NCBI GenBank assembly: GCA_003345595.1
Contig: PRDI01000077.1
Span: 1 to 35,546 of the forward strand
DNA: 35,546 bases
DNA from: Candidatus Thorarchaeota archaeon
Lineage (GTDB): Archaea; Asgardarchaeota; Thorarchaeia; Thorarchaeales; Thorarchaeaceae
Direction: 5' to 3'
Position numbers and translations under genes: made by a program. Positions 1 through 32,985 of this stretch are shown here, one piece after another. Each line of letters begins with the position of its first letter. Within the stretch, counting starts at the first letter, position 1. The notes beneath the pieces are model-generated. The model ran no database searches. It was not told where the DNA came from and was given only the letters and a program-made list of their open reading frames with translations.

Positions 1-1378
1 TCTTCCTGATTCTGCGCAGCAGTTCTACAAATCCTGGATCGGCTTTCTCTTGGACCTTCTTCGCGGCCCATACAGGTGTCTTGTACGGAATTGCTTTCAA
101 GCCCAGAGCAATATCGAGCAGCTCTTCATTGCAGCGTCGTATCTGCTCCACGGTTGCCTTGTCCTTCGGGAATCGAATGATGAACTTGAACTCACCAAAG
201 TGCATACTGTTCATTGGCTTGAGGTAGGCCATCAGTTCGAACCCATACTTCTCAACAACGCGCCTTCCCTGGGACAGCGCCTCTGCCCAACGCTTAGGAT
301 GAATGTACGTGCCGACCCATGTCAATCCATCATACTCCGTCAGAACCTTGTAGGCATCAGACGGAAAGTCCACCCATGATTCTGCCTGATCCCCCATCAT
401 CTTGGATACCGCGTCCCAGTCAACCAAGATCTGACGCTTGTCAGCTTTTCTTGAGTCCTCCACATACTTCTCGACCAGCTCGTACTTGGAATCAACTTCT
501 TTCTCGGTGTTGCCGGAAAGGGTGAGCAGGGTCCCATAGTCTGGTTCTCCCTCGAACACTTCCACTGGGGCAGACACACCCAGAAGCATCTTGACAATGG
601 ACAAAGACATGCAGTCTGCATCGTCGACAACTTGCGCTCTTGCTATCCGCTTGAGCAAGTCGGTTGTGGCCACCTCTCCAAAAGTGAAGAGCGCTGCATG
701 TTTTGTGAATTGTTTCTTGGGCCAGAGCTGAAGCGCAATCTTCGTTACAATACCGGTCATCCCCTGCCAGCCGCTGAAGAGGCCTACAAGGTCTGGAAGC
801 GGATACCTGCCAAACCAGTTGCCATCGCCCATGATTCCTGAGCCGGCTCGCACGATTTCTCCGGTGGGAAGGACTACCTCAAGCCCATTGATGAAATCCC
901 CCATGGCACCTCTGACCGTTGACAAATCACACAGTCCCTGCAAAAGAGCGTTTGCCATCACTGAAGTGAAAGGTGGAGCCAAGGGGTATGTGTACCTCAG
1001 CGATGGGTTGTGCTCGTCGAGATACTTTCGAAGATGGCCGAAGGTGACGCCTGGTTCGAGGACAGCGTACATGGCCTCGTCGTCGACCTCGATAATCCTG
1101 TTCATGCGCTTGAGGTCTACAGTGACAGCGCCATCAACCTGCGGTATCGTCAGGCCACCTACGTTCTGTCCAGTAACGAATGGAACAAGTGGGACTCGCT
1201 CCTTGTTCGCAGTCCGGACGATTTGCTGGACCTGTTCAACCGATTCAGGCATCACAACTAGCGCAGGCCGCCGCGGCGGGTTCTCAGTCATGTCGAACGA
1301 ATAGACATACTGTTCAGCAAGCCCGTCAGACACATATGGCTCACCAACAATCGAAGCGAGTTTCTGCTTGAGGGTCAT
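1..1378 (-). CDS. FAD-binding oxidoreductase, VAO/PCMH (GlcD/D-lactate dehydrogenase-like) family; 3' end runs off the window
   Basis: Absent from the ORF track because no stop falls in the window. Translated by hand from ATG 1378: MTLKQKLASIVGEPYVSD...RPALVVMPESVEQVQQIVRTANKERVPLVPFVTGQNVGG...VDLKRMNRIIEVDDEAMYAVLEPGVTFGHL...GLEVVLPTGEIV...GMTGIVTK...DPGFVELLRRIRK; typical FAD_binding_4 motifs. Confidence 0.9.
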   Translation of the reverse strand, partial: MTLKQKLASIVGEPYVSDGLAEQYVYSFDMTENPPRRPALVVMPESVEQVQQIVRTANKERVPLVPFVTGQNVGGLTIPQVDGAVTVDLKRMNRIIEVDDEAMYAVLEPGVTFGHLRKYLDEHNPSLRYTYPLAPPFTSVMANALLQGLCDLSTVRGAMGDFINGLEVVLPTGEIVRAGSGIMGDGNWFGRYPLPDLVGLFSGWQGMTGIVTKIALQLWPKKQFTKHAALFTFGEVATTDLLKRIARAQVVDDADCMSLSIVKMLLGVSAPVEVFEGEPDYGTLLTLSGNTEKEVDSKYELVEKYVEDSRKADKRQILVDWDAVSKMMGDQAESWVDFPSDAYKVLTEYDGLTWVGTYIHPKRWAEALSQGRRVVEKYGFELMAYLKPMNSMHFGEFKFIIRFPKDKATVEQIRRCNEELLDIALGLKAIPYKTPVWAAKKVQEKADPGFVELLRRIRK

Positions 1379-1383
1379 TCGTG

Positions 1384-1743
1384 TCACCCTCCTATCGAAG
1401 AGGAGATCAGTCTGTAGAACTGCAGAGTGGCCCGAGGGTGTCTTAGAAGGCCCTTGACCTTGAGACCGCCGGTCAACAGTGCTCGAATCGGTGAGGTAGC
1501 TCCCTTCACCAGTCTGATGATCGTATCGAGGCTAGCTCTTACCCGAATCGTTGGTTGAGGGTTGTCACCGTGTTCCACTTTGACTCCTTTGTCAAACGTG
1601 ATGGTCACAGGATAGTAGTCGGTTTCAAGCACGACCACCATTCTCCATCTCATGACTTGCACTCTGAAATCGGGTTTCCTTAGTGGTTTGGATATCAGAA
1701 CTGCCAGTATGTTGCCGATGAAATCCCTCGGTTGCTCAAGCAT
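1384..1743 (-). CDS. SCP2 sterol/lipid-binding domain protein
   Basis: ATG 1743 preceded by GAGGGTGA; C-terminal PTIRVRASLDTIIRLVKGATSPIRALLTGGLKVKG fits the SCP2 pattern; ends 5 nt before the oxidoreductase start. Confidence 0.75.
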   Translation of the reverse strand: MLEQPRDFIGNILAVLISKPLRKPDFRVQVMRWRMVVVLETDYYPVTITFDKGVKVEHGDNPQPTIRVRASLDTIIRLVKGATSPIRALLTGGLKVKGLLRHPRATLQFYRLISSSIGG

Positions 1744-1997
1744 GTGTTCACCCTCGAATACTTGTCTGGTTCTTTCTGATTTCGAGCCTGTCGTACTTCC
1801 ATCTATTGAAGCCGTTGTACGTACGCGCCAACTTCTAAGTGCGCGTTTGACTTGGAAATCAGATCGAAATTCCCTCTGTTCGCTCCCTCTTATCACCTCC
1901 GTCTTCACCAGGATCCTCAGCTCGTTGGATTGAATCCTATCATTGCCTGGAAACTTGGTGGGAGCACGGTCGTTGAAGTAATTCCGAAGGCTTAGAT

Positions 1998-2120
1998 TCA
2001 TCCGTTTGCCTTTTGCGCCAGTTCCTTTGTCCAGTTTCTGATCTATTCCCAGTCACGAGTATCAAATACACCAGGCTCCATCTCTGGAACTTCGGCAACC
2101 CTACAGTAGTTTGGCATTTT
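1998..2120 (-). pseudogene. Remnant of the C-terminus of a flavodoxin-domain (HemG/Flavodoxin_5-like) protein
   Basis: Reads ...EPGVFDTRDWE*IRNWTKELAQKANG* with an in-frame TAG; D-x-RDW-xx-I-xx-W is the usual family C-terminus; no N-terminal FMN-binding motif recognisable upstream. Confidence 0.5.
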
Positions 2121-2422
2121 ACATGAGAACACCTCCTTCCATCTCTCCACCAAACTATTCACAGTGTATCCAGCAGCATCAGCGGCCGTTCCATCCTGGG
2201 TCTTCGCCTGTACGTCCAGCTCTCGTCGCTGTAACAATAGTCATGACTCAGATTTGGGCACCCGCTCCCTCTCTCGATTTGTGGAATGCAAATCTACCGG
2301 GCTATAGAATAGCCTTGAATACTATCATGAGGGCAGTGTGTTTTGGATTGAAGAGTTGCTCTTCAATCAAAGCGGTGTTGAGGAGGTCGTTCACTGAAGG
2401 ACCTCTTTGTGGAGTGGAGAAT

Positions 2423-2716
2423 ATGATAAGTATCCAACTAAAGAGGACTCTTTGTCTTGGATTTGTTTTTGTTTTTGGACTTGTAGCACTTGCAGTGGCT
2501 GGTGGATTTGCTAGCCAAGCAATATACTGCTGGGCAACGGGCAATTTTGATTTGCTCGTAGCAACACTTGCAGGTTTCGGATTGGGTTTCCTTGTCGCTG
2601 GGGCTGAGGCAGCTTTCGGTGCTGGTGTAACGATAGGGGCCGCATTGGCTGGAATGGCAGCTGCTATAGGCCCATTAGGTTGGGCTCTTATAGGTGCGAT
2701 CATCGCAGGTGTGTAG
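2423..2716 (+). CDS. Gly/Ala-rich hydrophobic 97-aa peptide, putative circular bacteriocin (archaeocin) precursor
   Basis: ATG 2423 after GGAGTGGAGA; leader with KR, a hydrophobic stretch and ...ASQA, then IYCWATGNF...GAGVTIGAALAGMAAAIGPLGWALIGAIIAGV; adjacent to a SpoIIM-like gene. Confidence 0.6.
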   Translation: MISIQLKRTLCLGFVFVFGLVALAVAGGFASQAIYCWATGNFDLLVATLAGFGLGFLVAGAEAAFGAGVTIGAALAGMAAAIGPLGWALIGAIIAGV

Positions 2717-2734
2717 ACTCATGACAGTGGTAGT

Positions 2735-3181
2735 ATGGATGAAGATACTACCACCTCTTTCGTTTATTTCAAAGACATCCCCCTAGCTATCTTGACAGGG
2801 ATTCTCATTGGCCTGGGTCTTGCGGTCTATTATCCATTTCCAGTGACTTTTTCTGCGATTCCAATTGACGCATTAAGTTTCATTGTCATGAAGAATCTGT
2901 TTGTTCTCAGTATTCTATACTTCGCAAGGGCTTCACCGGGAATTCAAGTGTTGATTCTTATGAACAACAGCTTAGTTCAAGCATATCTGATATCATCAGC
3001 AATGATTCTAGGAATACAAATCGAAGCAATAGTATCGCTGCTATTTGCAGCATTGGAAAATGGGCTCTTTGCCGGCATCTCTTTAGAATCGAGGAATAAC
3101 GTCATCACAACCAATTGTCGAAAAGTCCGGTATCCCCTTCTGATAATCGTTTCTTCTATACTAGAAGCTCTCATCCTGTAG
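2735..3181 (+). CDS. SpoIIM/DUF95-like membrane protein
   Basis: 148 aa, 4-5 hydrophobic segments; motifs FIVMKNLFV, ILMNN, FAALE and terminal SSILEALI parallel the SpoIIM IFxNN, LxxNG, HGxLE and AAxIExxI motifs in the same order. Confidence 0.65.
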   Translation: MDEDTTTSFVYFKDIPLAILTGILIGLGLAVYYPFPVTFSAIPIDALSFIVMKNLFVLSILYFARASPGIQVLILMNNSLVQAYLISSAMILGIQIEAIVSLLFAALENGLFAGISLESRNNVITTNCRKVRYPLLIIVSSILEALIL

Positions 3182-3360
3182 AAGCCCTGTTCCGTAACTT
3201 GGATTGGGGCTTGTCAAGCCACTGTGTTTGATGTCGGTCTTCGAGTTCAGGGTGCTCTTGAACAAAACTCTCGGCCTGCATCGTTTCGGATACTGCTGAC
3301 TTTGAGCCAATACCTAGTTTGTCTGCGGTCTTCTGATGTTGATCTTGACGCAACATGGAG
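3171..3360 (-). pseudogene. Fragment resembling a ParB-associated helix-turn-helix region
   Basis: QKTADKLGIGSKSAVSETMQAESFVQEHPEL resembles the HTH that follows ParB-like domains in mobile-element proteins; no intact N-terminus. Confidence 0.35.
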
Positions 3361-3880
3361 ATGGGATTCTGATTGAGACACCACAGGTAATAGGGATAGG
3401 AGGTCAGAGGTACTCTCCAGTAGCGGCACCAAGATACTGAAATACGTGTCAATGGTAAGCAAACCAGTACAGAAACTAGAGAGATGTAGGTGGGAACACT
3501 GTCATTAGACGCCTTGATGCCTCCGGAGAAGAGTCAGGCCATTATCTCTGTTATGCCTTCCGCGGCAGTTGCCTTTTGGATTAGTTCGTATTTCCTAACG
3601 CTTGGCACGTTGACCGAATAGTTGGCACTGACTGGTCTTCTGACATCGTCTTTGCTCTCTTCCTTTCGATAGTCAATGTAGATGTGTGTGTCACAAGAAG
3701 GCTACTCAGAGGAAGAGCAAGAAAAACACTGAGAGGTATGTTGGAAGAGAATGTCACAACTGCGTATGGGTCAGAGTTTGCCAACCTGATCAGAGAACTG
3801 AAGAAGAAGAAAGACTTCAAGAAGATTGATGGTCATTTCTCAATCTATTGAAGTTGCGGGATTGCCGACTCAATAACACG

Positions 3881-23538: not shown

Positions 23539-24225
23539 TCACCAACCTGTGGCAATCCCCCATGAAACGAGCATCACCAGCGCAAGAAGAAGAGCCTGGA
23601 CCGCCAAGAGCGGCCTGAGGGCCTGCTTTTCCGGCTTCTCTGATGCTCTGCCCTGGGCAAGTGAACCATCCAGCAGGCCAACTGTGTCATCGACAATGCG
23701 GCCAAGTTCGTCCTTACGCGTTCTCAGCCGCTCTAAGACTGCAGCAGATTCACGGTTGCAGTCAAACCTTGCTCTCCTCCACACGATTTCAATGAGATGA
23801 TTGGTCACGTTTCGCTTGAGAGTTCCTGATCGAAGATGCCTCACAAGGTCTCTCTCTATGCGCCTGTCCATATACCCGATCGACCACTTTCCTATCTTAG
23901 AGGCATCAAACAGGACGAGTAATACTGTGCTCAACGGAACGCCCAGAAGCCATATGACGTATAGGATGCGTGACATCTGAGTCACCAGTTGGAAACCCAA
24001 GTCGAATGTTAGGGATTCGAGGACTAGAAGCAAGAAAGGGAGGACTGACCACGCAGCCAAGGCATACATCAAATCAAGTGCCTTTCCTGAGAAGAGGACT
24101 TCCCGCAGCTTGGCGCCATCCGGGCGTACCCGGGGCAGTAGTGCCGCGAAGGATAAGAACCCAGCCCAAGTCAGGGCAATTACAGCCGTTGCTGTAAATG
24201 CGTCAGTCCACGTCATGCTTATCAA
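23539..24225 (-). CDS. Membrane protein, putative immunity/partner for tip 3
   Basis: 228 aa, 3 N-terminal TM, soluble helical part and C-terminal TM; starts 3 nt after the tip-3 stop. Confidence 0.7.
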   Translation of the reverse strand: MISMTWTDAFTATAVIALTWAGFLSFAALLPRVRPDGAKLREVLFSGKALDLMYALAAWSVLPFLLLVLESLTFDLGFQLVTQMSRILYVIWLLGVPLSTVLLVLFDASKIGKWSIGYMDRRIERDLVRHLRSGTLKRNVTNHLIEIVWRRARFDCNRESAAVLERLRTRKDELGRIVDDTVGLLDGSLAQGRASEKPEKQALRPLLAVQALLLALVMLVSWGIATGW

Positions 24226-24228
24226 CCT

Positions 24229-25213
24229 CTACTGAAGTGCCATCAATGACCTCTCGTAGAACAAACACCGGCAGTACCAAGTGACGGCGCCGATGATGAA
24301 TTTGATGACTAAGCTAATAGGTATCCACCATCCTCCGAGCTTTGCCAGTGCTTGGATTTTTGTGAGATTCTTTGCAGCGGCCATAAGCTTGTGCACTGCT
24401 GCCAAAACGATCAGGGCCTGGACGACTGTTTCACCCATGAGAGCGACTGCGAAGCCCGCCGTCAATGCTCTTGCTTCGAGAAGCGTGAGAGCACCCGTGT
24501 CCACACTTGACCAGATAAGCGGCAGCCACAGGAACCAAAATAGGACCCACGCAGTGACAAGGACCGCAGTTGCAACTCCGAGTGTAAGGACTCCAAGACT
24601 CAAGGAAGTGTCAATGGCAATCCATGCCAATGTGAGCAATGTCAAATACACTCCAAAGGGACCGCCCAAGTCCAGCAACAAGGCATCGCCTTCCTCCACT
24701 TGCAGCGCCTCTTTCTGACTCTGAGAGAGTCCGTCATCCCAAGGCGTATCGAAGAAGGCAGACTCTACTCTTGTGTCGCCAAGCAAGTCAACAGAGATCT
24801 GCAAGACCATATGGCCTCCGTATTCTGTGAATGCTTCGTAAGCCCCGAGCAATCGGGGCCACAACTGACTCATCCAAGAGAACACAATTGACGCCATCTG
24901 ATCGAGAAGAAGGTCGCGGCGTATCTGTGAACTGGGGCCCAGATTCTCAGGATCACCGAGTGCGCCTTCTGTGCTGCCATCGTACCCGATAGGCTCCTCC
25001 GGGTCAGGCGCCGTGGGGTCATGCCTCGTTAGGTCCGCGACGACGTTGATGTCGTGTACGCGCATGTCGACGAGCGAGTATGTGGAGTACCTCTGTCCGA
25101 CTGTGACCACGTACTTGATCACCCGAGAGCAGTTGTTGACCTCTGCTATGGGATAGCTGCTGCCAGACCCATCGATGCTCGAGTATATGGCCCCATCACT
25201 ACCCTGTCACAGA
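24229..25213 (-). pseudogene. Orphan cassette 3: repeat R3 plus alternative hydrophobic C-terminal tip
   Basis: R3 about 24983-25213 (TGA at the conserved W, then QGSDGAIYSSIDG...HDPTAPDPEE), open to 24229; no signal peptide or N-terminal domains. Confidence 0.85.
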
Positions 25214-25251
25214 GGCTTCAGATTGTTGCGTTGAGTAGCATCGCCTAGAAT

Positions 25252-25689
25252 TCACGACTCTTGAGCGCTCCTACTGATTGGACCCGACTCTTGATGAGGC
25301 TGAGAGGAACGATTAGTGACTGCCTTGTATGTAATCCATGCGGCATAGCATAGACTGACCACTGTCATGCTGCCGGTTGCGCCGTCGAGAAATACACTGA
25401 CCACGCCTGTCCACGTCCCGGCGGTCCAGCCGACAAATGGGAGCACCACGGAGCCAGTCAGCATCATAGCTTGCAGGAGTCTCGCACGAGAGGGGTTCGC
25501 AGCGACCCACTTTGCCATTGAGTTCATGTGCCTGAAAGTCACTTCCCGTCCGGCCGCCTTCGTAATTCTGGCAATGGTAATCATATCCTCCACGAAGAAG
25601 ACAAACAGAAGGAATACCAGTGCCACAGACAAGGCACTCACAGCCAAGATTATATTCAACACGCAGTCCAATCGCACTCACAACTCCAT
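25252..25689 (-). CDS. Membrane protein, putative immunity/partner for tip 2 (early TGA, or restart at GTG 25677)
   Basis: GGAGAACACT ATG GAG TTG TGA GTG CGA..., followed by a 141-aa three-TM ORF 25252-25677. Confidence 0.65.
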
Positions 25690-25779
25690 AGTGTTCTCCC
25701 AGACCCCTGAGTATGACTGGGGACGATTGCATCTTACGGACCATTCTCGCAGGCAGTGCATCACTTGACATCAGTCTCC

Positions 25780-26832
25780 TCAGAACGATTTCACTAGATG
25801 GTCATACGCTACGACGAAGCACCATATTGAGATTCCTAATAGAACGCAGAGGGCCACTTTCGAACTCAAGAATATGCCTGAGGGTCCCTTGACTTCTGCT
25901 GCTGCTTCCTCGAGCTCCTGAGCTGGATTGGGCCCATACAGAAGATTCCTGATAGTCACTAAGACGCTGAAACCCAGCGCGTTAAGTAGGGTCAGGGCTC
26001 CCCAGAATATGTAGAAGCAGCAAGCATCGAATTCGGTCCAGGCCCCTTTTGCAATCATGCTATTCGAGTATGTTGTCATCTCGTAGATCAGGAGCCCAAT
26101 CGAAGTTGCAAGACAGACCGTCGCGGCGACAAGTGCAGGTATACATCCGGACTCGGCGGCGATCTCAAAAGCATAGGCACTCAACCGGATGTCAATATTG
26201 ATGAGACCTATGATGATGTTGTAGGCGATTGACCTGATTGGATCGCTGGGCTGCAGAAACGAACCGTCTCCAGAAGTCGTTACGTCAAGAATCTCGACAT
26301 ATCCGAGAATGTTCTTCGCCACGTGAACAAGTAGGGTGAGGCCAGCCATGGCAAAGGCGGGGTGTCCTGCTGGAACATTCGAGGGCACAAGCTGGAGGGA
26401 GTATTGATAGTGCAAGAGAGGCCACGGTCCGGTCCAGTATGGGTCCACGACGTCCATTGCCTGAGCCGCTTCCTGATCTGCTCTTGCTCTGTCATACGCT
26501 GGAGGAGTACGTGTCCCATCATAATCTACAGGGTCCTCCGGGTCAGGCGCAGGGGGGTCATGCCTCGTCAGGTCAGCGACCAAGTTTACATCATGGATGC
26601 GCATGTCGACCAGCGTGTATGAGTTGGACCTCTGTCCGACTGTGACCACGTACTTGATGATGCGTGAGCAGTTGTTGACCTCCGCTATGGGATAACCACT
26701 TCCAGACCCATCGATGGTCGACCAAATGGCCCCAGCACCGCCCTGCCACGGGTCCCACCAGATTCTCGCTGTGTTCTTGAAGTTGGCCTGCATGTAGCCT
26801 GAGGTCTGAGAGTAGGACGCGCCATCGCACAT
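25780..26832 (-). CDS. Orphan cassette 2: repeat R2 plus alternative hydrophobic C-terminal tip
   Basis: 350-aa ORF; first about 100 aa near-identical to the matching part of 29800-32985 (R2 about 26530-26826), rest divergent; ATG preceded by AGGAACC. Confidence 0.85.
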   Translation of the reverse strand: MCDGASYSQTSGYMQANFKNTARIWWDPWQGGAGAIWSTIDGSGSGYPIAEVNNCSRIIKYVVTVGQRSNSYTLVDMRIHDVNLVADLTRHDPPAPDPEDPVDYDGTRTPPAYDRARADQEAAQAMDVVDPYWTGPWPLLHYQYSLQLVPSNVPAGHPAFAMAGLTLLVHVAKNILGYVEILDVTTSGDGSFLQPSDPIRSIAYNIIIGLINIDIRLSAYAFEIAAESGCIPALVAATVCLATSIGLLIYEMTTYSNSMIAKGAWTEFDACCFYIFWGALTLLNALGFSVLVTIRNLLYGPNPAQELEEAAAEVKGPSGIFLSSKVALCVLLGISIWCFVVAYDHLVKSF

Positions 26833-26869
26833 GGTTCCTGATTCCAGACGGTCACCTTTGTAGCAGCTG

Positions 26870-27418
26870 TCAATCCTCCTGTTCTTGCCCTGGCTGTAGC
26901 CGTTCTAAGGCGTCCCTGAACGCTTGTCCGACCTCGTCGTCGCGGGACAGGAGCCTCTGCTTTGCGTGCATGTACTCCTTCACCACTACATCGTCAGGAT
27001 CCAGCTTTCTGATCTTGTCCAGTAGCGTTGAAAGCATCCCATCCAAATGCCCGTTTCTGTAATTGTGTTCAATAGTAAGTTCTAAGATCTCGCCGGGCTC
27101 CACGTCCTTTCGTCCTGTTGTTTTAAATCGCCGCCCCAGCACTACGAACGTGAATGCAGGAGCAAACATCAGAACGACCAACACCACACCAACCTCAGGA
27201 TGCGCTGCTTGAATCCACAACATGGGAAGAACCCAGAAAAGAAGCACCAGGAGCATGGCTTCGTATGCCGCAGTGGCCCTTCGACGCGTACCGAAGACTC
27301 TGTGTCCTACGTTGCGCAGAGTGGACGGCCCTCTGTTTCGAGAAGTCAGCCAGTCTACAAAAGCGAACAACAGGACTATGCCGGCACTCGCGATTGCCGC
27401 TAATCCGAATGTATCCAC
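26870..27418 (-). CDS. Membrane protein, putative immunity/partner for tip 1
   Basis: 182 aa, 3 TM plus soluble helical C-terminus; 13 nt after the tip-1 stop. Confidence 0.7.
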   Translation of the reverse strand: MDTFGLAAIASAGIVLLFAFVDWLTSRNRGPSTLRNVGHRVFGTRRRATAAYEAMLLVLLFWVLPMLWIQAAHPEVGVVLVVLMFAPAFTFVVLGRRFKTTGRKDVEPGEILELTIEHNYRNGHLDGMLSTLLDKIRKLDPDDVVVKEYMHAKQRLLSRDDEVGQAFRDALERLQPGQEQED

Positions 27419-27431
27419 GATTCAAGGCCTC

Positions 27432-28606
27432 CTAGGTGCTCCAACCCATAGCAAGGTAGTATCCAACATACCATGCACAGGTCAACATGACGGCCATCTT
27501 GATAAAGGCCACTGCAAAGAACCAGATGCCTCTGTTGAATCCAGCTGGGGCTATCGGGAAGGGCTTACAGGCTTTGTAGAGCCTGTACATGAGCCAGCCC
27601 GCCGCAAGATCAGGACCTACGCCCGGGAATAGTAGCATAATCAGACTCAGGAAAGCGGCGGCCGCACCGTATGGATGCATCACATTGTTTTCCACTGCCC
27701 ATTGGATAAATGCCACATACGCTAAGAACAGGACGGTCCATGCGCCCAACATCGCCAAGAGAACCCAAATGCTGGTAAGCATAGCAAGCGGACTGGCAAG
27801 ATTCTCGATTAGCATCAGCCCATACTTCAATGCGAAAGCCAAACCCACTGGCGCCACGAATTTGACTAGGAATTCGGCCCACCCACTGTCCATCTGTTGA
27901 GCCACTGCGCCCATCTCTTCTTCTGTACCCTCGGCCTCTATGCTTGACGCAATGGACAAAGTATGCACCTGAATATCTCCCAGGATATCGACGGAGATCA
28001 GCACATTGAATACGGTCTCGATCACGTCAACGAGTTCTAGGAACAAGCGGGGCCAGAAGTTCACTAGAGCCCAGTATGCCTCCAGGGAAACACTCAGCAA
28101 GCTGAGCGTCTGTTCTCCCTCTTCCTGACCACACTCAGGAGTGGGAGCGGTTCCATCGCTCTCCTCCGGGTCGGGTGCTGTCGGATTGTGCCTTGTCAAG
28201 TCAGCAGCAGCGTTGATGTCATGTACGCGCATGTCGACCAGCGTGTATGAGGAGTACCTCTGCCCGACTGTGACCACGTACTTGATGATGCGTGAGCAGT
28301 TGTTTACTTCTGCTATGGGATAGCCGCTGCCAGAGCTGTCAATGGTCGAGTATATGGCGCCAGCACCTCCCGGCCACGGGTCCCACCAGATCTTCGCTGT
28401 CTTCTTGAAGTTCGTGTAGATGTTGCCTGAGGTCTGAGAGTAGGACGCGCCATTCTGGAAGTAGTACAAGTTGAATCAGCCCCTCTGACTGCCCACCCAA
28501 GCGTCGCCTAGTGCATGAGCAACACGCACTGCTTGTTCTCGTCGAACAGCCCATTGTAGGCTCTTCCCATGGTTGAACTGCACTGCACGAGCTCTCCAAT
28601 CACCGA
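27432..28606 (-). pseudogene. Orphan cassette 1: repeat R1 plus alternative hydrophobic C-terminal tip
   Basis: Open frame 27432-28469; upstream 28470-28606 is a disrupted copy (SVIGELVQCSSTMGRAYNGLFDENKQCVLLMH*) of the main gene; 28227-28304 is identical to 30535-30612. Confidence 0.88.
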
Positions 28607-28614
28607 GGACTCGC

Positions 28615-29019
28615 TCAACCGGCAGAATCGGCAGTTTCCTGAGGAACTGCCCGACTAACGACCAAGCTGGCTATCATCAGAAGGACTGGAACTAGAGGGA
28701 ACCACGCGAGCACATGCATGAACACGGAGAGCATCCCAGAACCCCATAGTGGTATGTCTGACAGCACCGCAGCCAGCGAGATCATCACTGCTGCCCATAC
28801 GACGGTCACGACCGCAAAGGAATCAGGTGCGCCCCGGCTGAGTACGCCGCGAGGCGCACCTGTTGGTCTGCCATCATGCGACCTGAGAGATCCATTATGT
28901 GCTAATATGACGTCACTGAACAGGCGATGGAATCCTATGATGAACGCGAGGTTCGCAAGGATATTAGCCCACGCAAAGATCTCAGTTACCAGTTCGAGTT
29001 GCCACATAGCCACACCCAC
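28615..29019 (-). CDS. Three-TM membrane protein, putative immunity/partner for the truncated tip
   Basis: 134 aa, three hydrophobic segments; 4 nt after the stop at 29024. Confidence 0.65.
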   Translation of the reverse strand: MGVAMWQLELVTEIFAWANILANLAFIIGFHRLFSDVILAHNGSLRSHDGRPTGAPRGVLSRGAPDSFAVVTVVWAAVMISLAAVLSDIPLWGSGMLSVFMHVLAWFPLVPVLLMIASLVVSRAVPQETADSAG

Positions 29020-29023
29020 CTAT

Positions 29024-29350
29024 TCAGAACAGACCCATGCCCAGCATGAATCCGTAAACGATGATAGCAAATCCCACGATCATTTGAATTACCCCGGAAA
29101 CCACGAATCCAACGACTAAGTAGTCCACCGTGGCCCATGGAACGCACCCAGCTGCTAGCACAAATGCATGATAGGCCGCCGATTCCACAAAGGCCATGTT
29201 CAATATTGCGTAAGCAGTGGCATCCATATGGAACCTGAACGCCTCAGGCAAAGCGTCTACCGCCCTATCGACTCATCTATCAATCCAAGCACCTCACCCT
29301 TGGTCCTTGATGCAGTGAAGGCCACAAGGCCCCTAGTGGCTCGAAGCATC
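29024..29350 (-). pseudogene. Truncated hydrophobic tip fragment lacking the repeat
   Basis: 75-aa hydrophobic ORF end (29024-29251) in the tip position between two partner genes; upstream frame is broken. Confidence 0.5.
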
Positions 29351-29354
29351 GCGT

Positions 29355-29762
29355 CTAATTCCCTTTATTGTCGGTAGGACGATCTTGCGGTTCATGTAGC
29401 AGCGCATACTCTTTCAGTGGGCCCTCAGAAACCTTTCGACGAGTCGCCATGACTCCTGCAAGGGCGGTCAGTAGCATCCCGACTGAAACCCCGACCAACA
29501 GAACAACGAAGTCCAGCTGTGGAAATGTGCCCGCCCATCTAGCAGCAGCCAAAAGGATAAGAAAGCACACTACCCCAACGCTGCACCCTAAGCCAGAGAA
29601 CCACAAAACCCACCATTGCTCTTCGTCCGCCATCATGCTCCACGGCTTTTTCCGTGTGCCAATCGCCTCGTAAGCCAGTAAGTAAACCGAGAGGACTGAG
29701 ACTGACCATGACGCAACCAGAAGCAGTAACGAGAGCACCAGAGGATCCATCACTTCTTGCAC
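29355..29762 (-). CDS. Three-TM membrane protein, putative cognate immunity/partner of the full-length protein
   Basis: 135 aa, three TM, directly downstream of 29800; alternative ATG at 29750. Confidence 0.7.
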   Translation of the reverse strand: MQEVMDPLVLSLLLLVASWSVSVLSVYLLAYEAIGTRKKPWSMMADEEQWWVLWFSGLGCSVGVVCFLILLAAARWAGTFPQLDFVVLLVGVSVGMLLTALAGVMATRRKVSEGPLKEYALLHEPQDRPTDNKGN

Positions 29763-29799
29763 TGGGCTTCACCTTCCAAACTTCAGACTGTATGTTGAT

Positions 29800-32700
29800 T
29801 CATGGAACGAAGCGCGTATAGAGAGCAGCCGTGACTAGCGCAAAGCAGGCTATGCATTTAAACACGAAGAGAATCCAGCCACCAGGCAGGATACTCAGTA
29901 GCGCCTCTGTGACATCTTTGCCGGCCAGGATACTGCCGAGTATCACATAGCCGAACGTCAGACAGAATGCCCCGAAGCAGAACACTAGACCAGTGAGCAG
30001 CAAGACCCAGAATCTGAACCAGGGGTCAAAGCCGCTATTCCTTAGAGATGCTTCCAGTATCGTGATAGAGTAGGTGTACAAGATCATCCAGTCGAATCCC
30101 AGAGCAACAGCGAATGGAATCCAGCCCGGATTAGAGTTGGATGCGAAACAGGCTGATGCCCAAAACAATTCGATTAAGTACAGGCCTGCCATTACGACTA
30201 GGTTGTCAATGATCAACTGCATAGCAGCGTTGACGATAGCCGAGTTGTCCAGTGTCTGAATGCTGTTGCCCATGTCGTCAGTAGCAGCGAGCGTTTCGAG
30301 TGTTCTAGAGCCCAGCAGGTCTGACTTTACTTGAACCACCAGTGACGATCCGCTCGGGTGGTACTTCTCCACTCTGGTGTGCAGTTCAGGCCAAGGTATG
30401 GTCCACCAGCTATTCACATGCTGAACCCAGTCCGCGTCGGGCGGATCTGCCGTCTGGCCCACGCCTAGGTCAGTCCCGTCATATATCGCGGGGTCGTGTG
30501 TCGTCACGTCAGCGACAACATTGACGTCATGGATGCGCATGTCGACCAGCGTGTATGAGGAGTACCTCTGCCCGACTGTGACCACGTACTTGATGATGCG
30601 TGAGCAGTTGTTGACCTCTGCTATGGGATATCCGCTGCCAGACCCATCGATGGTCGACCATATGGCGCCGTCACCGCCCTGCCACGGGTCCCACCAGATC
30701 TTCGCCGTCTTCTGGAAGTTGGTGTAGATGTAGCCAGAGGCTTGAGAGTAGGACGCGCCGTCCTCAAAGTAGTACAGGTTGAACCACCCCTTCTGGCTCC
30801 CATACCAGGCGTCGCCCCAGTAGACAAGCATCACACACTCTTTGTTTTCGTCGAACAGCCCCACGTAGGCTTGGCCCATGGTGTAGCTGCTCTGCACGAG
30901 CTCGCCGATAACAGAGAAATCGCTCAGCTGGTAAAGCCTGAACGGCCTGTCCAGCACATGCACGTACTGCGGTCCATGCCAACCTGATATCCCGGACACT
31001 ATCGAGGTCCACTTCATGTAGCTCTGTCCGGATGGGACCTCAAGAACACCCTCCGAAGGAGGGCCATAGGGGAACGTCAGGTCCTTCTGGAACTCATACA
31101 TGTCGTTGCATGCGTCGTGGAACACCGTGTAGTCCGAGTAGGCGTAGCTCAACCTAAGGGAGTAGATTCTTTCATCATGCTCGTTGAGGGAGCCGTAACG
31201 GTAGCTCTGGATCGCCACATACTTGATTATTCTGTTAGTATTGATCTGCGTATAGCAGTAGAGCCAAAGTTCATCCTTTCCCGGAACGTCTGCAAACAGT
31301 CCTTGCAGGGGATCGAACCTTATCTGCACAACTCCAGATACGTCACCAGTGAGCAGGTTCGATTGAAGAGACTTGCTAGTCCCGTCCTCGTTGTAGTAGC
31401 ATGCAGTGAAGACCGTGGCCGCAGTGTCTGTCCAGGAGTCAGCAACATAGAGTAGCACTGCTAGCTTCTTGTTTGAGTCGTACAATGCTACGAACGTCAC
31501 ACCCACCCGTGAGGCTTGGCCACTGTGCACAAGCGAAAGGTTTGCTGAAAAGGAACCGAGGTCCTTCATCTTGAAATAAGACGGCAGAGTCATCACGAAC
31601 GACGGACCATGCCAAGAGGTTCCCGTTGGGATGTTCGTAACAGTCAGGTATGTGCCAGTCGAGCCTATTGAACCGGTTGCTTGTGTATATCCCGGAAGAT
31701 TAGGCCAGCTCGAGTCATACTCGTAGTCGGATCTCCCACAAGAGTCGGTCCACAGACCGCCTGTCCTGCCCGGGTTGCGACCCACCACAGGCTCTGACCA
31801 TATGCCGTCCACCTTCTGCCTAGAAACATAGACACCGCCAGCACCTATCTGGTTCAACGATATCGAATCGACAGAGTCGAGGACACTGCCGCTCGCAGTG
31901 ACGTTCACCCAGACCTGAGTGTAGAGCGAGCCGTCTCCGGAATAGACTACGACACCTGAGTACGTGCCACCACAGAACACCAGTGGGCCATACTCCCAGT
32001 GTCCACGAGGTGCTATGTATATGTAGACCTGACTATAGCTTTCCGCGCCCGGAGGAGAAAGAAAGTCCGGACCGCCATCTGGGATCCATGTCGCCTCTTG
32101 ATAGTAGTTCCTCGTGTAGTTCACGGAGAGAGCCATCAGGGTCCTGAGATAGGGTACCCCATAGATGTCGAAATAGACTTTGTAGTAGTCCACTATTAGG
32201 TCTCTGAGGTCCAGAGGCAGTGCATTGAACCCGTCGGGCCCGGAGAGCTGTACCCATGTGGAGGACCTGAGGACCATGTACTCATCTGTATAGGTGTCAG
32301 AGTAGTGAGCATCTACGTACTCGATCTCGTCAAGAATCACCTGTTCGAAGTCCATGATGTGCACGCTGCAACCTGACTGAACGAGTTCCTTTGCCGTGGT
32401 CAGTTCTGTCGTCCTGTACTGCTCGACCATCTGGGAATTGATGCCGAGCGCAAGCATGACCGCTGAGGCAATCTCGACGTTGGTCACCTCCGCAGGTCTG
32501 ACACCAGGAACTGTGTAGAGTTTCTTCGCTGACTCCTCAATCCCATAACTGATGAGCCTTCTACTCTCACACGCTGCAAACAGGTGAAGGGTCGCTTTCG
32601 AGTCCTCGACTATCCCCGCCATCGCTTTCCATGAAGTGAGACGCGATCCAGTGACTATGCCTTGTGGTCCCCCGTGGGACATGTATATCACGACTGAAGC

Positions 32701-32985
32701 ATCCAGAGACTTCGCCGCACTTGGGTCACAGGTCTTGATCAGAATCAACCTGTCCACGAAGAATGGATCATCTGTTATGAATGAGGACAGTCTTCCCATC
32801 AGTTCTTGTGTAGCCCAGTCAGTGTCTGTATCGCCTGACAGCTGAAGAATGACGACGGTCGGGCCTGCATTTGCAGCATCAGCTTGCCACGCAGTTGAGG
32901 CGACAAGCTGAATCCCAAGAATCGTTGCTACACTTACTGCACACAGAATCACGATTGCTCGTGCTGAACGAACAGCTAGTTTCAT
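29800..32985 (-). CDS. Large exported multidomain protein, putative polymorphic toxin/recognition protein (caspase/CHAT-like domain, two tandem beta-rich domains, variable hydrophobic tip)
   Basis: 1061 aa; N-terminal basic plus hydrophobic signal/anchor; VVIYMSHG (H104) and LFAACES (C139); internal duplication WHGP...RIIKYV; 4-5 hydrophobic helices at the C-terminus; segment 30490-30915 repeated downstream. Confidence 0.8.
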   Translation of the reverse strand: MKLAVRSARAIVILCAVSVATILGIQLVASTAWQADAANAGPTVVILQLSGDTDTDWATQELMGRLSSFITDDPFFVDRLILIKTCDPSAAKSLDASVVIYMSHGGPQGIVTGSRLTSWKAMAGIVEDSKATLHLFAACESRRLISYGIEESAKKLYTVPGVRPAEVTNVEIASAVMLALGINSQMVEQYRTTELTTAKELVQSGCSVHIMDFEQVILDEIEYVDAHYSDTYTDEYMVLRSSTWVQLSGPDGFNALPLDLRDLIVDYYKVYFDIYGVPYLRTLMALSVNYTRNYYQEATWIPDGGPDFLSPPGAESYSQVYIYIAPRGHWEYGPLVFCGGTYSGVVVYSGDGSLYTQVWVNVTASGSVLDSVDSISLNQIGAGGVYVSRQKVDGIWSEPVVGRNPGRTGGLWTDSCGRSDYEYDSSWPNLPGYTQATGSIGSTGTYLTVTNIPTGTSWHGPSFVMTLPSYFKMKDLGSFSANLSLVHSGQASRVGVTFVALYDSNKKLAVLLYVADSWTDTAATVFTACYYNEDGTSKSLQSNLLTGDVSGVVQIRFDPLQGLFADVPGKDELWLYCYTQINTNRIIKYVAIQSYRYGSLNEHDERIYSLRLSYAYSDYTVFHDACNDMYEFQKDLTFPYGPPSEGVLEVPSGQSYMKWTSIVSGISGWHGPQYVHVLDRPFRLYQLSDFSVIGELVQSSYTMGQAYVGLFDENKECVMLVYWGDAWYGSQKGWFNLYYFEDGASYSQASGYIYTNFQKTAKIWWDPWQGGDGAIWSTIDGSGSGYPIAEVNNCSRIIKYVVTVGQRYSSYTLVDMRIHDVNVVADVTTHDPAIYDGTDLGVGQTADPPDADWVQHVNSWWTIPWPELHTRVEKYHPSGSSLVVQVKSDLLGSRTLETLAATDDMGNSIQTLDNSAIVNAAMQLIIDNLVVMAGLYLIELFWASACFASNSNPGWIPFAVALGFDWMILYTYSITILEASLRNSGFDPWFRFWVLLLTGLVFCFGAFCLTFGYVILGSILAGKDVTEALLSILPGGWILFVFKCIACFALVTAALYTRFVP
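30490..30915 (-). repeat. Repeat R0: master copy of the cassette repeat
   Basis: Partial copies at about 28165-28606, 26530-26826, 24983-25213 and 23085-23266, all in the same orientation. Confidence 0.95.

Follow-up and report, generated by a model that had tools for sequence, protein, structure and literature searches.

By the working definition, the gene cluster of a circular bacteriocin combines a precursor with a DUF95 protein and with a protein that binds ATP (PMC8534725), and reviews and genome-mining papers take the SpoIIM/DUF95 gene as class-defining for circular bacteriocins. In the clusters of altitudin S, a bacteriocin that is circular by mass spectrometry, an M48 gene lies beside the precursor gene, together with SpoIIM, Yip1 and ATP-binding cassette (ABC) genes; its discoverers describe the enzymes of cleavage and cyclisation as still unidentified (bioRxiv 10.1101/2025.10.31.685828). 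Makarova et al. described archaeal cassettes, from Euryarchaeota, in which SpoIIM-like arCOG01996 and Yip1 arCOG02054 occur with small, fast-evolving three-helix proteins, and interpreted them as membrane-remodelling or secretory complexes (PMC5898192). The mining studies and the survey of archaeal bacteriocins that we searched contain no circular bacteriocin from archaea, and our literature search yielded no paper connecting Asgard archaea with circular bacteriocins. Here we analyse a pair of adjacent genes at positions 2423–3181, plus strand, of a 35,546-nucleotide contig of a Candidatus Thorarchaeota archaeon (PRDI01000077.1, assembly GCA_003345595.1); the whole of this stretch is referred to below as the window. 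We read the pair as a cassette of circular-bacteriocin-like kind, divergent and mobile, that has only its two-gene core in this window, and on the sequence comparisons that follow we give this reading an even chance. The cassette probably works like the bacterial circular-bacteriocin clusters, to which it is probably related at a very great distance.

The first gene of the pair is an ATG open reading frame (ORF) at 2423–2716 that codes for a peptide of 97 amino acids, and the second, ORF2, follows after a gap of 18 nt at 2735–3181 (148 amino acids). The N-terminal 33 residues of the peptide (2423–2521), a putative leader, contain K7 and R8, then about 21 hydrophobic residues, and finish with GGF-ASQA. 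The remaining 64 residues (2522–2716 with the stop codon), the putative core, start with IYCW, contain PLGWAL and end in IIAGV. There is no K, R or H in the core and one each of D and E, Gly and Ala make up 47% of it, and its grand average of hydropathy (GRAVY) is 1.53. The public gene call uses an upstream ATG and gives a 129-residue peptide (2327–2716); we prefer the start at 2423 because it is supported by the homologues and by a GGAG-type, Shine–Dalgarno-like run, GGAGTGGAG, just 5' of it. Sequence comparison indicates that the peptide gene and ORF2 are both real genes, more than chance ORFs, because homologues occur in other Asgard assemblies and in metagenomes. An earlier reading of this DNA, made from its letters alone (the sequence-only reading), had described the same peptide anatomy, the 18-nt spacing and an almost uncharged Gly/Ala-rich core, all of which match the sequence. 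It had also remarked on AT-richer DNA, in agreement with a guanine plus cytosine (GC) content of 40.5% in ORF2 and 46.1% in the surrounding island at 1812–3842, compared with 52–54% in the flanks.

Five relatives of the peptide, with 37–60% identity, were found in other Asgard assemblies and metagenomes, and with the window's own peptide the family amounts to six clusters among 5.8 billion protein clusters. The length of the core is constant, exactly 64 residues with no insertions or deletions in 5 of 5 intact homologues. Family cores have a net charge of −2 to 0, an isoelectric point of about 4–5.5 and GRAVY values of 1.24–1.72, and the core in the window is free of cationic residues. The family keeps the motif GGF-x-x-x-A at the end of the leader and I/V-Y/W-C/G-W/F directly after it, as well as P-x-G-W further on and a C-terminus that is small and hydrophobic, and from this conservation on either side we infer a leader/core boundary after SQA. 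With 33 plus 64 residues and a predicted cut between them, the peptide has the anatomy called for in a circular-bacteriocin precursor, a leader followed by a hydrophobic helical core of about 58–82 residues. The AlphaFold2 model of the core has five short helices (predicted local distance difference test, pLDDT, 77), and the calculated monoisotopic mass is 6,062.2 Da for the linear and 6,044.2 Da for the cyclic form. In a protein language model the neighbours of the peptide include the circular-bacteriocin families PF12173, PF09221 and PF16942 (0.79–0.81), which we treat as a lead only.

The leader resembles a signal peptide or membrane anchor as well as the leaders of gassericin-type precursors. 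Its basic n-region, hydrophobic h-region and small residues at −3 and −1 also suit a different account, in which a Sec-type pre-peptide is cut after SQA by signal peptidase, the hydrophobic product, whether released or retained, acts on membranes as a linear peptide, ORF2 is the immunity protein and no ring is formed. Such a linear toxin with its immunity gene is possible, and we would not put it higher than that; the fixed core length of 64 and the conservation of the first core residues and of the C-terminus speak against it.

Several further searches were negative. Pfam and NCBIfam returned no match to it even at E ≤ 10, and Pfam searches with the relatives P0004, P0011 and P0012 returned only unrelated families at E 0.26–0.87, far below the cut-offs. 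No match was found in a first metagenome scan with the peptide as query, in two scans of genome contigs, in a tblastn search of plasmids with the peptide, or in viral contigs, where the queries were the peptide profile and ORF2. Sequence searches of the PDB with the peptide, the peptide profile and ORF2 gave chance matches only, with no solved PF12173 member among them. Weak matches to the peptide profile in two relatives (L002 and L003) proved to be unrelated membrane proteins of 98 amino acids. One family member, P0014, located on a 9.8-kb contig of an ENA metagenome, has lost its stop codon, extends 25 residues beyond the C-terminus of the family and lacks several conserved glycines; to judge from its sequence it is probably a decaying copy of the peptide gene.

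The architecture of the pair parallels that of the gassericin-type clusters (subgroup II, class IIc, PF12173). In the clusters of gassericin A (pLgLA39) and plantacyclin B21AG (pB21AG01) and in a Bacillus thuringiensis cluster, the SpoIIM gene comes directly after the precursor gene, as ORF2 does here. The gassericin-type SpoIIM proteins have 157–171 residues and five helices, compared with the 148 residues of ORF2. Gassericin-type precursors are 85–93 residues long with leaders of 27–35 residues, and the leaders of the Asgard family have 33–37; in both, a basic segment precedes a hydrophobic one. At the junction, a leader ending in A is followed by IYCW here, and a leader ending in N by IYWI in the gassericin family; gassericin-type cores start with I-Y/V-W/F, and an I-Y-W-type core start is common to both groups. 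Both also have a P-x(1,2)-W-A/L-L/I motif 10–13 residues before the C-terminus. Further likenesses are a core length fixed within each family, a Gly/Ala-rich composition, weak charge and an association with mobile DNA. There are also differences: the gassericin-type core has 58 residues and a GRAVY of 0.9–1.0, whereas the cores here have 64 residues and values of 1.2–1.7, and in the window there is no cationic core residue, no PHG motif in ORF2, no ABC gene and an archaeal host. The B. thuringiensis cluster, at 1415–2715 of the 7-kb plasmid pBTHD521-1, is a bacterial case of a “minimal” cluster: beside its class IIc cyclic-bacteriocin gene only SpoIIM and a single hypothetical gene are annotated, and no ABC transporter.

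The relationship between ORF2 and SpoIIM was examined by profile comparison. An exhaustive HMMER search gave four true relatives of ORF2 with 27–81% identity, which together form a new small family; another candidate, P0006, is a repetitive protein and was discarded as a spurious match. The invariant residues of the family are N54, N78-S79, E108 and E144, and AlphaFold2 predicts five transmembrane helices for ORF2 (pLDDT 78). The SpoIIM proteins used for comparison were taken from plasmid-borne gassericin-type cluster records, and a gassericin A core served only as a probe. Alignment of the ORF2 family with these proteins by hhalign gave a score of 26.7 (P 0.0015, probability 16.8%) over 122 colinear columns, nearly the full length. 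In this alignment N54 stands opposite K/R-N of SpoIIM helix 2, E144 opposite E of the last helix, and E108 one column off the E of PHG..E. The score exceeds all controls: the maximum was 19.0 among 100 column shuffles and 16.7 for shuffles within 8- or 15-column windows, which keep the hydropathy, while the reversed alignment scored 10.6, and scores of 9.2–15.7 were obtained with 14 unrelated real membrane-protein families. These comparisons indicate a similarity to SpoIIM that is sub-threshold yet specific, and we regard ORF2 as a probable, highly diverged member of the SpoIIM superfamily that lies outside PF01944 as defined. In the language model ORF2 falls near a PF01944 cluster (0.86, with 192 shared features), again a lead only.

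For the linear toxin and immunity pair these results cut both ways. The sole above-background similarity of ORF2 is to SpoIIM, which argues against a role as immunity protein, and the immunity proteins known for circular bacteriocins are far smaller than ORF2. On the other hand, the peptides of close relatives are 60% identical compared with 81% for ORF2, so that the peptide diverges faster, ORF2 has no SpoIIM match in Pfam, and neither a dedicated peptidase nor a pump is found here; all three would suit a toxin with its immunity protein.

The circular-bacteriocin-like reading draws further support from the genomic context of the relatives. At no fewer than four independent Asgard loci, the peptide gene and ORF2 are neighbours and keep their order, as they do wherever DNA or locus tags allow the comparison: in the window, in the metagenome contig L033, in Lokiarchaeon CR_4 (L035/L047; RBG13Loki_1641/1640), and in a Thorarchaeota metagenome-assembled genome, the closest relative, where the intact pair has adjacent locus tags (ACTSWA_07955/07950). 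The sequence-only reading had made linkage of homologous peptides to SpoIIM genes a test of its proposal, and wherever context is available the homologues do adjoin a member of the ORF2 family. The ORF2 family itself is rare, with members in 3 of the 400 Asgard genomes searched, belonging to three different families. Directly after ORF2, a membrane M48 metallopeptidase of about 405 residues is encoded in L033, G217 and CR_4 (Pfam E 7e-14 and 8e-13). Next in CR_4, after the M48 gene, come an ABC ATPase (PF00005, E 1.8e-29), two genes past ORF2, and a 290-residue, multi-helix, permease-like protein; this assembly has runs of N within the M48/ABC junction and within the permease-like gene. The CR_4 genes lie on an island (L047, G201:C220, 175–7346) with DDE transposases on one side and a 583-residue transposase-like ORF, which has no Pfam match, on the other.

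An M48 gene together with the precursor, SpoIIM and ABC genes is also the arrangement of the altitudin S clusters of Bacillales, and the gene set of CR_4 matches it, with M48 present in L033 and G217 too. A five-helix core is likewise predicted for the peptide of the window. This match to a proven circular-bacteriocin cluster is a further point against a linear product. The altitudin S cores differ in having 75–82 residues, a charge of +7 to +13 and near-neutral hydropathy, compared with 64 residues and −2 to 0 here, and, besides the M48 gene that the window lacks, their clusters contain Yip1 and a bona fide PF01944 protein, neither of which is seen in the Asgard pair.

The same context invites comparison with the cassettes of Makarova et al. 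By description, both are compact and combine a small, fast-evolving hydrophobic protein of about three segments with a diverged SpoIIM-type protein. It is conceivable, though in our judgement improbable, that the 97-residue protein is never processed and forms, as a stable three-helix protein, a small membrane complex with ORF2 (and with M48 in the relatives) that serves in remodelling, secretion or quality control. The peptide does have three hydrophobic segments, of which the N-terminal one is the best conserved among close relatives; the published archaeal cassettes of SpoIIM-like arCOG01996 and small three-helix proteins were read in this way (PMC5898192), and the M48 subfamily stands alone in three genomes. 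However, the module has an extremely sparse and scattered distribution (found in 3 of 400 Asgard genomes; six peptide clusters in 5.8 billion), its carrier here is an island while in CR_4 transposases flank it, and the motif right at the predicted cut site is conserved. The Yip1 gene of the Makarova cassettes is also missing here, with no PF04893 match among the scanned island ORFs or their immediate neighbours.

Comparison with related genomes indicates that the cassette arrived in this genome as a 2-kb island of foreign DNA. The lower-GC island measures 2,031 bp (1812–3842) and is missing from three genomes of the same genus, in which the sequences corresponding to window positions 1–1811 and 3840/3930–7300 are contiguous and the island is absent exactly there. 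It is bordered by two copies of an 11-nt direct repeat, ATCTATTGAAG, at 1801–1811 and 3843–3853, and both junctions align to an uninterrupted site in one of the same-genus genomes (G001), which has a single copy of ATCTATTGAAG and flanks that are 88–90% identical. The source genome has one copy of the island. Terminal inverted repeats, a transposase or integrase, and any other recognisable recombinase were not found in the island. Its small ORFs other than the pair have no Pfam domains, no Rfam family was found in it, and its tail (3182–3842) holds short, unsupported ORFs only, with no remnant of M48 or ABC genes. The repeat may be a target duplication or a recombination site. We considered whether the island disrupts an SCP2-like gene and rejected the idea, as the conserved start of that gene (MLEQPRDF, at about 1743) sits 68 nt inside the left flank, with the island upstream of it. 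The patchy distribution and the exact empty site fit an accessory, competition-type cassette, and two genes together on a small mobile island are also a layout typical of a toxin with its immunity gene.

In this genome the pair could also be an inert remnant, the front end of a larger cluster that no longer gives a mature product here, or an orphan cassette acting only in immunity or as a decoy; we consider this very improbable. CR_4 has M48, ABC ATPase and permease genes of which none was found in this window or genome (83% complete), and the lost stop codon and conserved glycines of P0014 demonstrate that decay happens in the peptide family. In the window, however, neither ORF is broken, a ribosome-binding site is present and every residue that is invariant in the family is kept, the closest relative also retains an intact pair, and a bacterial class IIc cluster with just a precursor, SpoIIM and one unknown gene exists.

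A number of observations weigh against a circular-bacteriocin-like cassette, and they concern the two proteins and also the gene content. No ABC gene is present in the island or its flanks, the window has no M48 gene, and the genome, at 83% completeness, gives no match to PF01435; remnants of M48, ABC and permease genes were sought throughout the window, with none below E 0.04. The statement in the sequence-only reading that no ABC transporter or immunity gene is adjacent was correct within this window, and its word “minimal” was apt, because the island holds no M48 or ABC remnant and the genome no PF01435 protein. The M48 subfamily also occurs without the peptide and ORF2 in three genomes of one genus and is therefore not an obligate partner. 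For ORF2, the Pfam match to SpoIIM whose absence the sequence-only reading had named as refuting its proposal did not materialise: there is no match to PF01944 at E ≤ 10 for ORF2 and none at E ≤ 1 for its four relatives, NCBIfam gives no match to ORF2 even at E ≤ 10, and a PF01944 search of the whole genome, at the same completeness, found nothing while the same search was positive in control genomes. The PHG motif of SpoIIM is missing from ORF2. The hhalign probability for ORF2 against SpoIIM is 17–24%, and against Asgard DUF95 proteins 2.3%, confined to the last helix, whereas true DUF95 sets recognise one another at 96%; HMMER profile scores between ORF2 and SpoIIM stay below 8 bits. What can be kept of the label “SpoIIM-like” is that the best profile match, although sub-threshold, is to bacteriocin-linked SpoIIM and that the gene occupies the same slot; in Pfam terms the label does not apply.

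The peptide presents a similar picture. Against PF12173 there is no Pfam match, hhalign against four members of PF12173 gives a probability of 0.4%, and global alignments give shuffle z-scores of 0–2.9. Of the resemblance to gassericin A described in the sequence-only reading, the architecture stands and the sequence homology is not significant. Fold searches with the predicted models of both proteins are non-specific: Foldseek of the core and ORF2 models against the PDB gave nothing at E ≤ 0.001, the ESM Atlas structure neighbours of ORF2 had template-modelling (TM) scores of at most 0.44, and a wide VIA-align search with the helical 64-residue core model returned generic helical bundles (Z ≤ 5.6), with no circular bacteriocin in the top 50. 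No described circular bacteriocin is as hydrophobic as this core, which could be no more than a pair of membrane helices. The cyclic product is so far putative. The cassette of the window falls outside PF01944, PF12173 and the three-gene definition, lacking a PF01944 protein and, in the window, an ABC protein, the latter being present in the CR_4 homologue. It is accordingly to be seen as a variant rather than a member of the circular-bacteriocin clusters.

The comparisons above lead us to propose how such a cassette might operate; the cutting of the precursor, ring closure, export and activity, like the part played by ORF2, are all inferred from the genes and their relatives. The 97-residue precursor would enter the membrane by way of its basic-then-hydrophobic 33-residue leader. 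The leader would then be cut off after SQA, in the relatives by the adjacent M48 peptidase and here by a host signal peptidase, a choice suggested by S at −3 and A at −1, which obey its rule. Assisted by the five-helix ORF2, the uncharged, Gly/Ala-rich core of 64 residues would be closed head to tail, joining I34 to V97; ORF2, in the slot of SpoIIM/DUF95, may have the further task of releasing the product or of protecting the producer. The result would be a cyclic peptide of about 6,044 Da (monoisotopic), very hydrophobic and active in the membranes of competitors. The more specific proposal that the two genes suffice by themselves, with a Pfam-invisible branch of SpoIIM closing the 64-residue ring and host signal peptidase removing the leader, seems to us unlikely.

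If the circular-bacteriocin-like reading holds, a diverged and stripped-down relative of SpoIIM would extend the circular-bacteriocin system to Asgard archaea, a new peptide family and a new SpoIIM-like family would be defined, and the pair would serve as a minimal set with which to find out what components cutting and ring closure require. A self-sufficient two-gene system would be the first cyclic “archaeocin” and would, as a minimal system, allow a direct test of which protein cyclises. The exact empty site also illustrates cleanly, in a natural setting, how cassettes of this kind move. Should the peptide not be cyclised, the locus would still be new, a mobile pair of genes for small membrane proteins, though of modest interest.

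A different SpoIIM-linked arrangement occurs in Thorarchaeota of the same family. At two loci (L012, 1059–2711; L013, 1081–2723) a hydrophobic protein of 117–127 residues is encoded directly upstream of a DUF95 gene, and in these cassettes, where the match to PF01944 is true (E 1e-24), a third membrane protein of 235–238 residues is also encoded. The peptide family is unrelated to that of the window and the DUF95 protein is a bona fide PF01944 member, whereas the ORF2 family of the window is Pfam-negative; the two loci represent a separate type of SpoIIM-linked cassette.

The stand-alone M48 proteins (L058, L059 and L060, in genomes G297, G318 and G307) are 71–72% identical to the cassette-linked M48 of G217. 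Remnants of the pair were sought upstream of these genes and none were found; in two of the three genomes the upstream region codes for membrane proteins of 159 and 205 amino acids. Elsewhere in the window, on the minus strand at 23539–32985, there is a row of ORFs without Pfam matches, which includes one for a protein of 1,061 amino acids and several for proteins of 134–350 amino acids.

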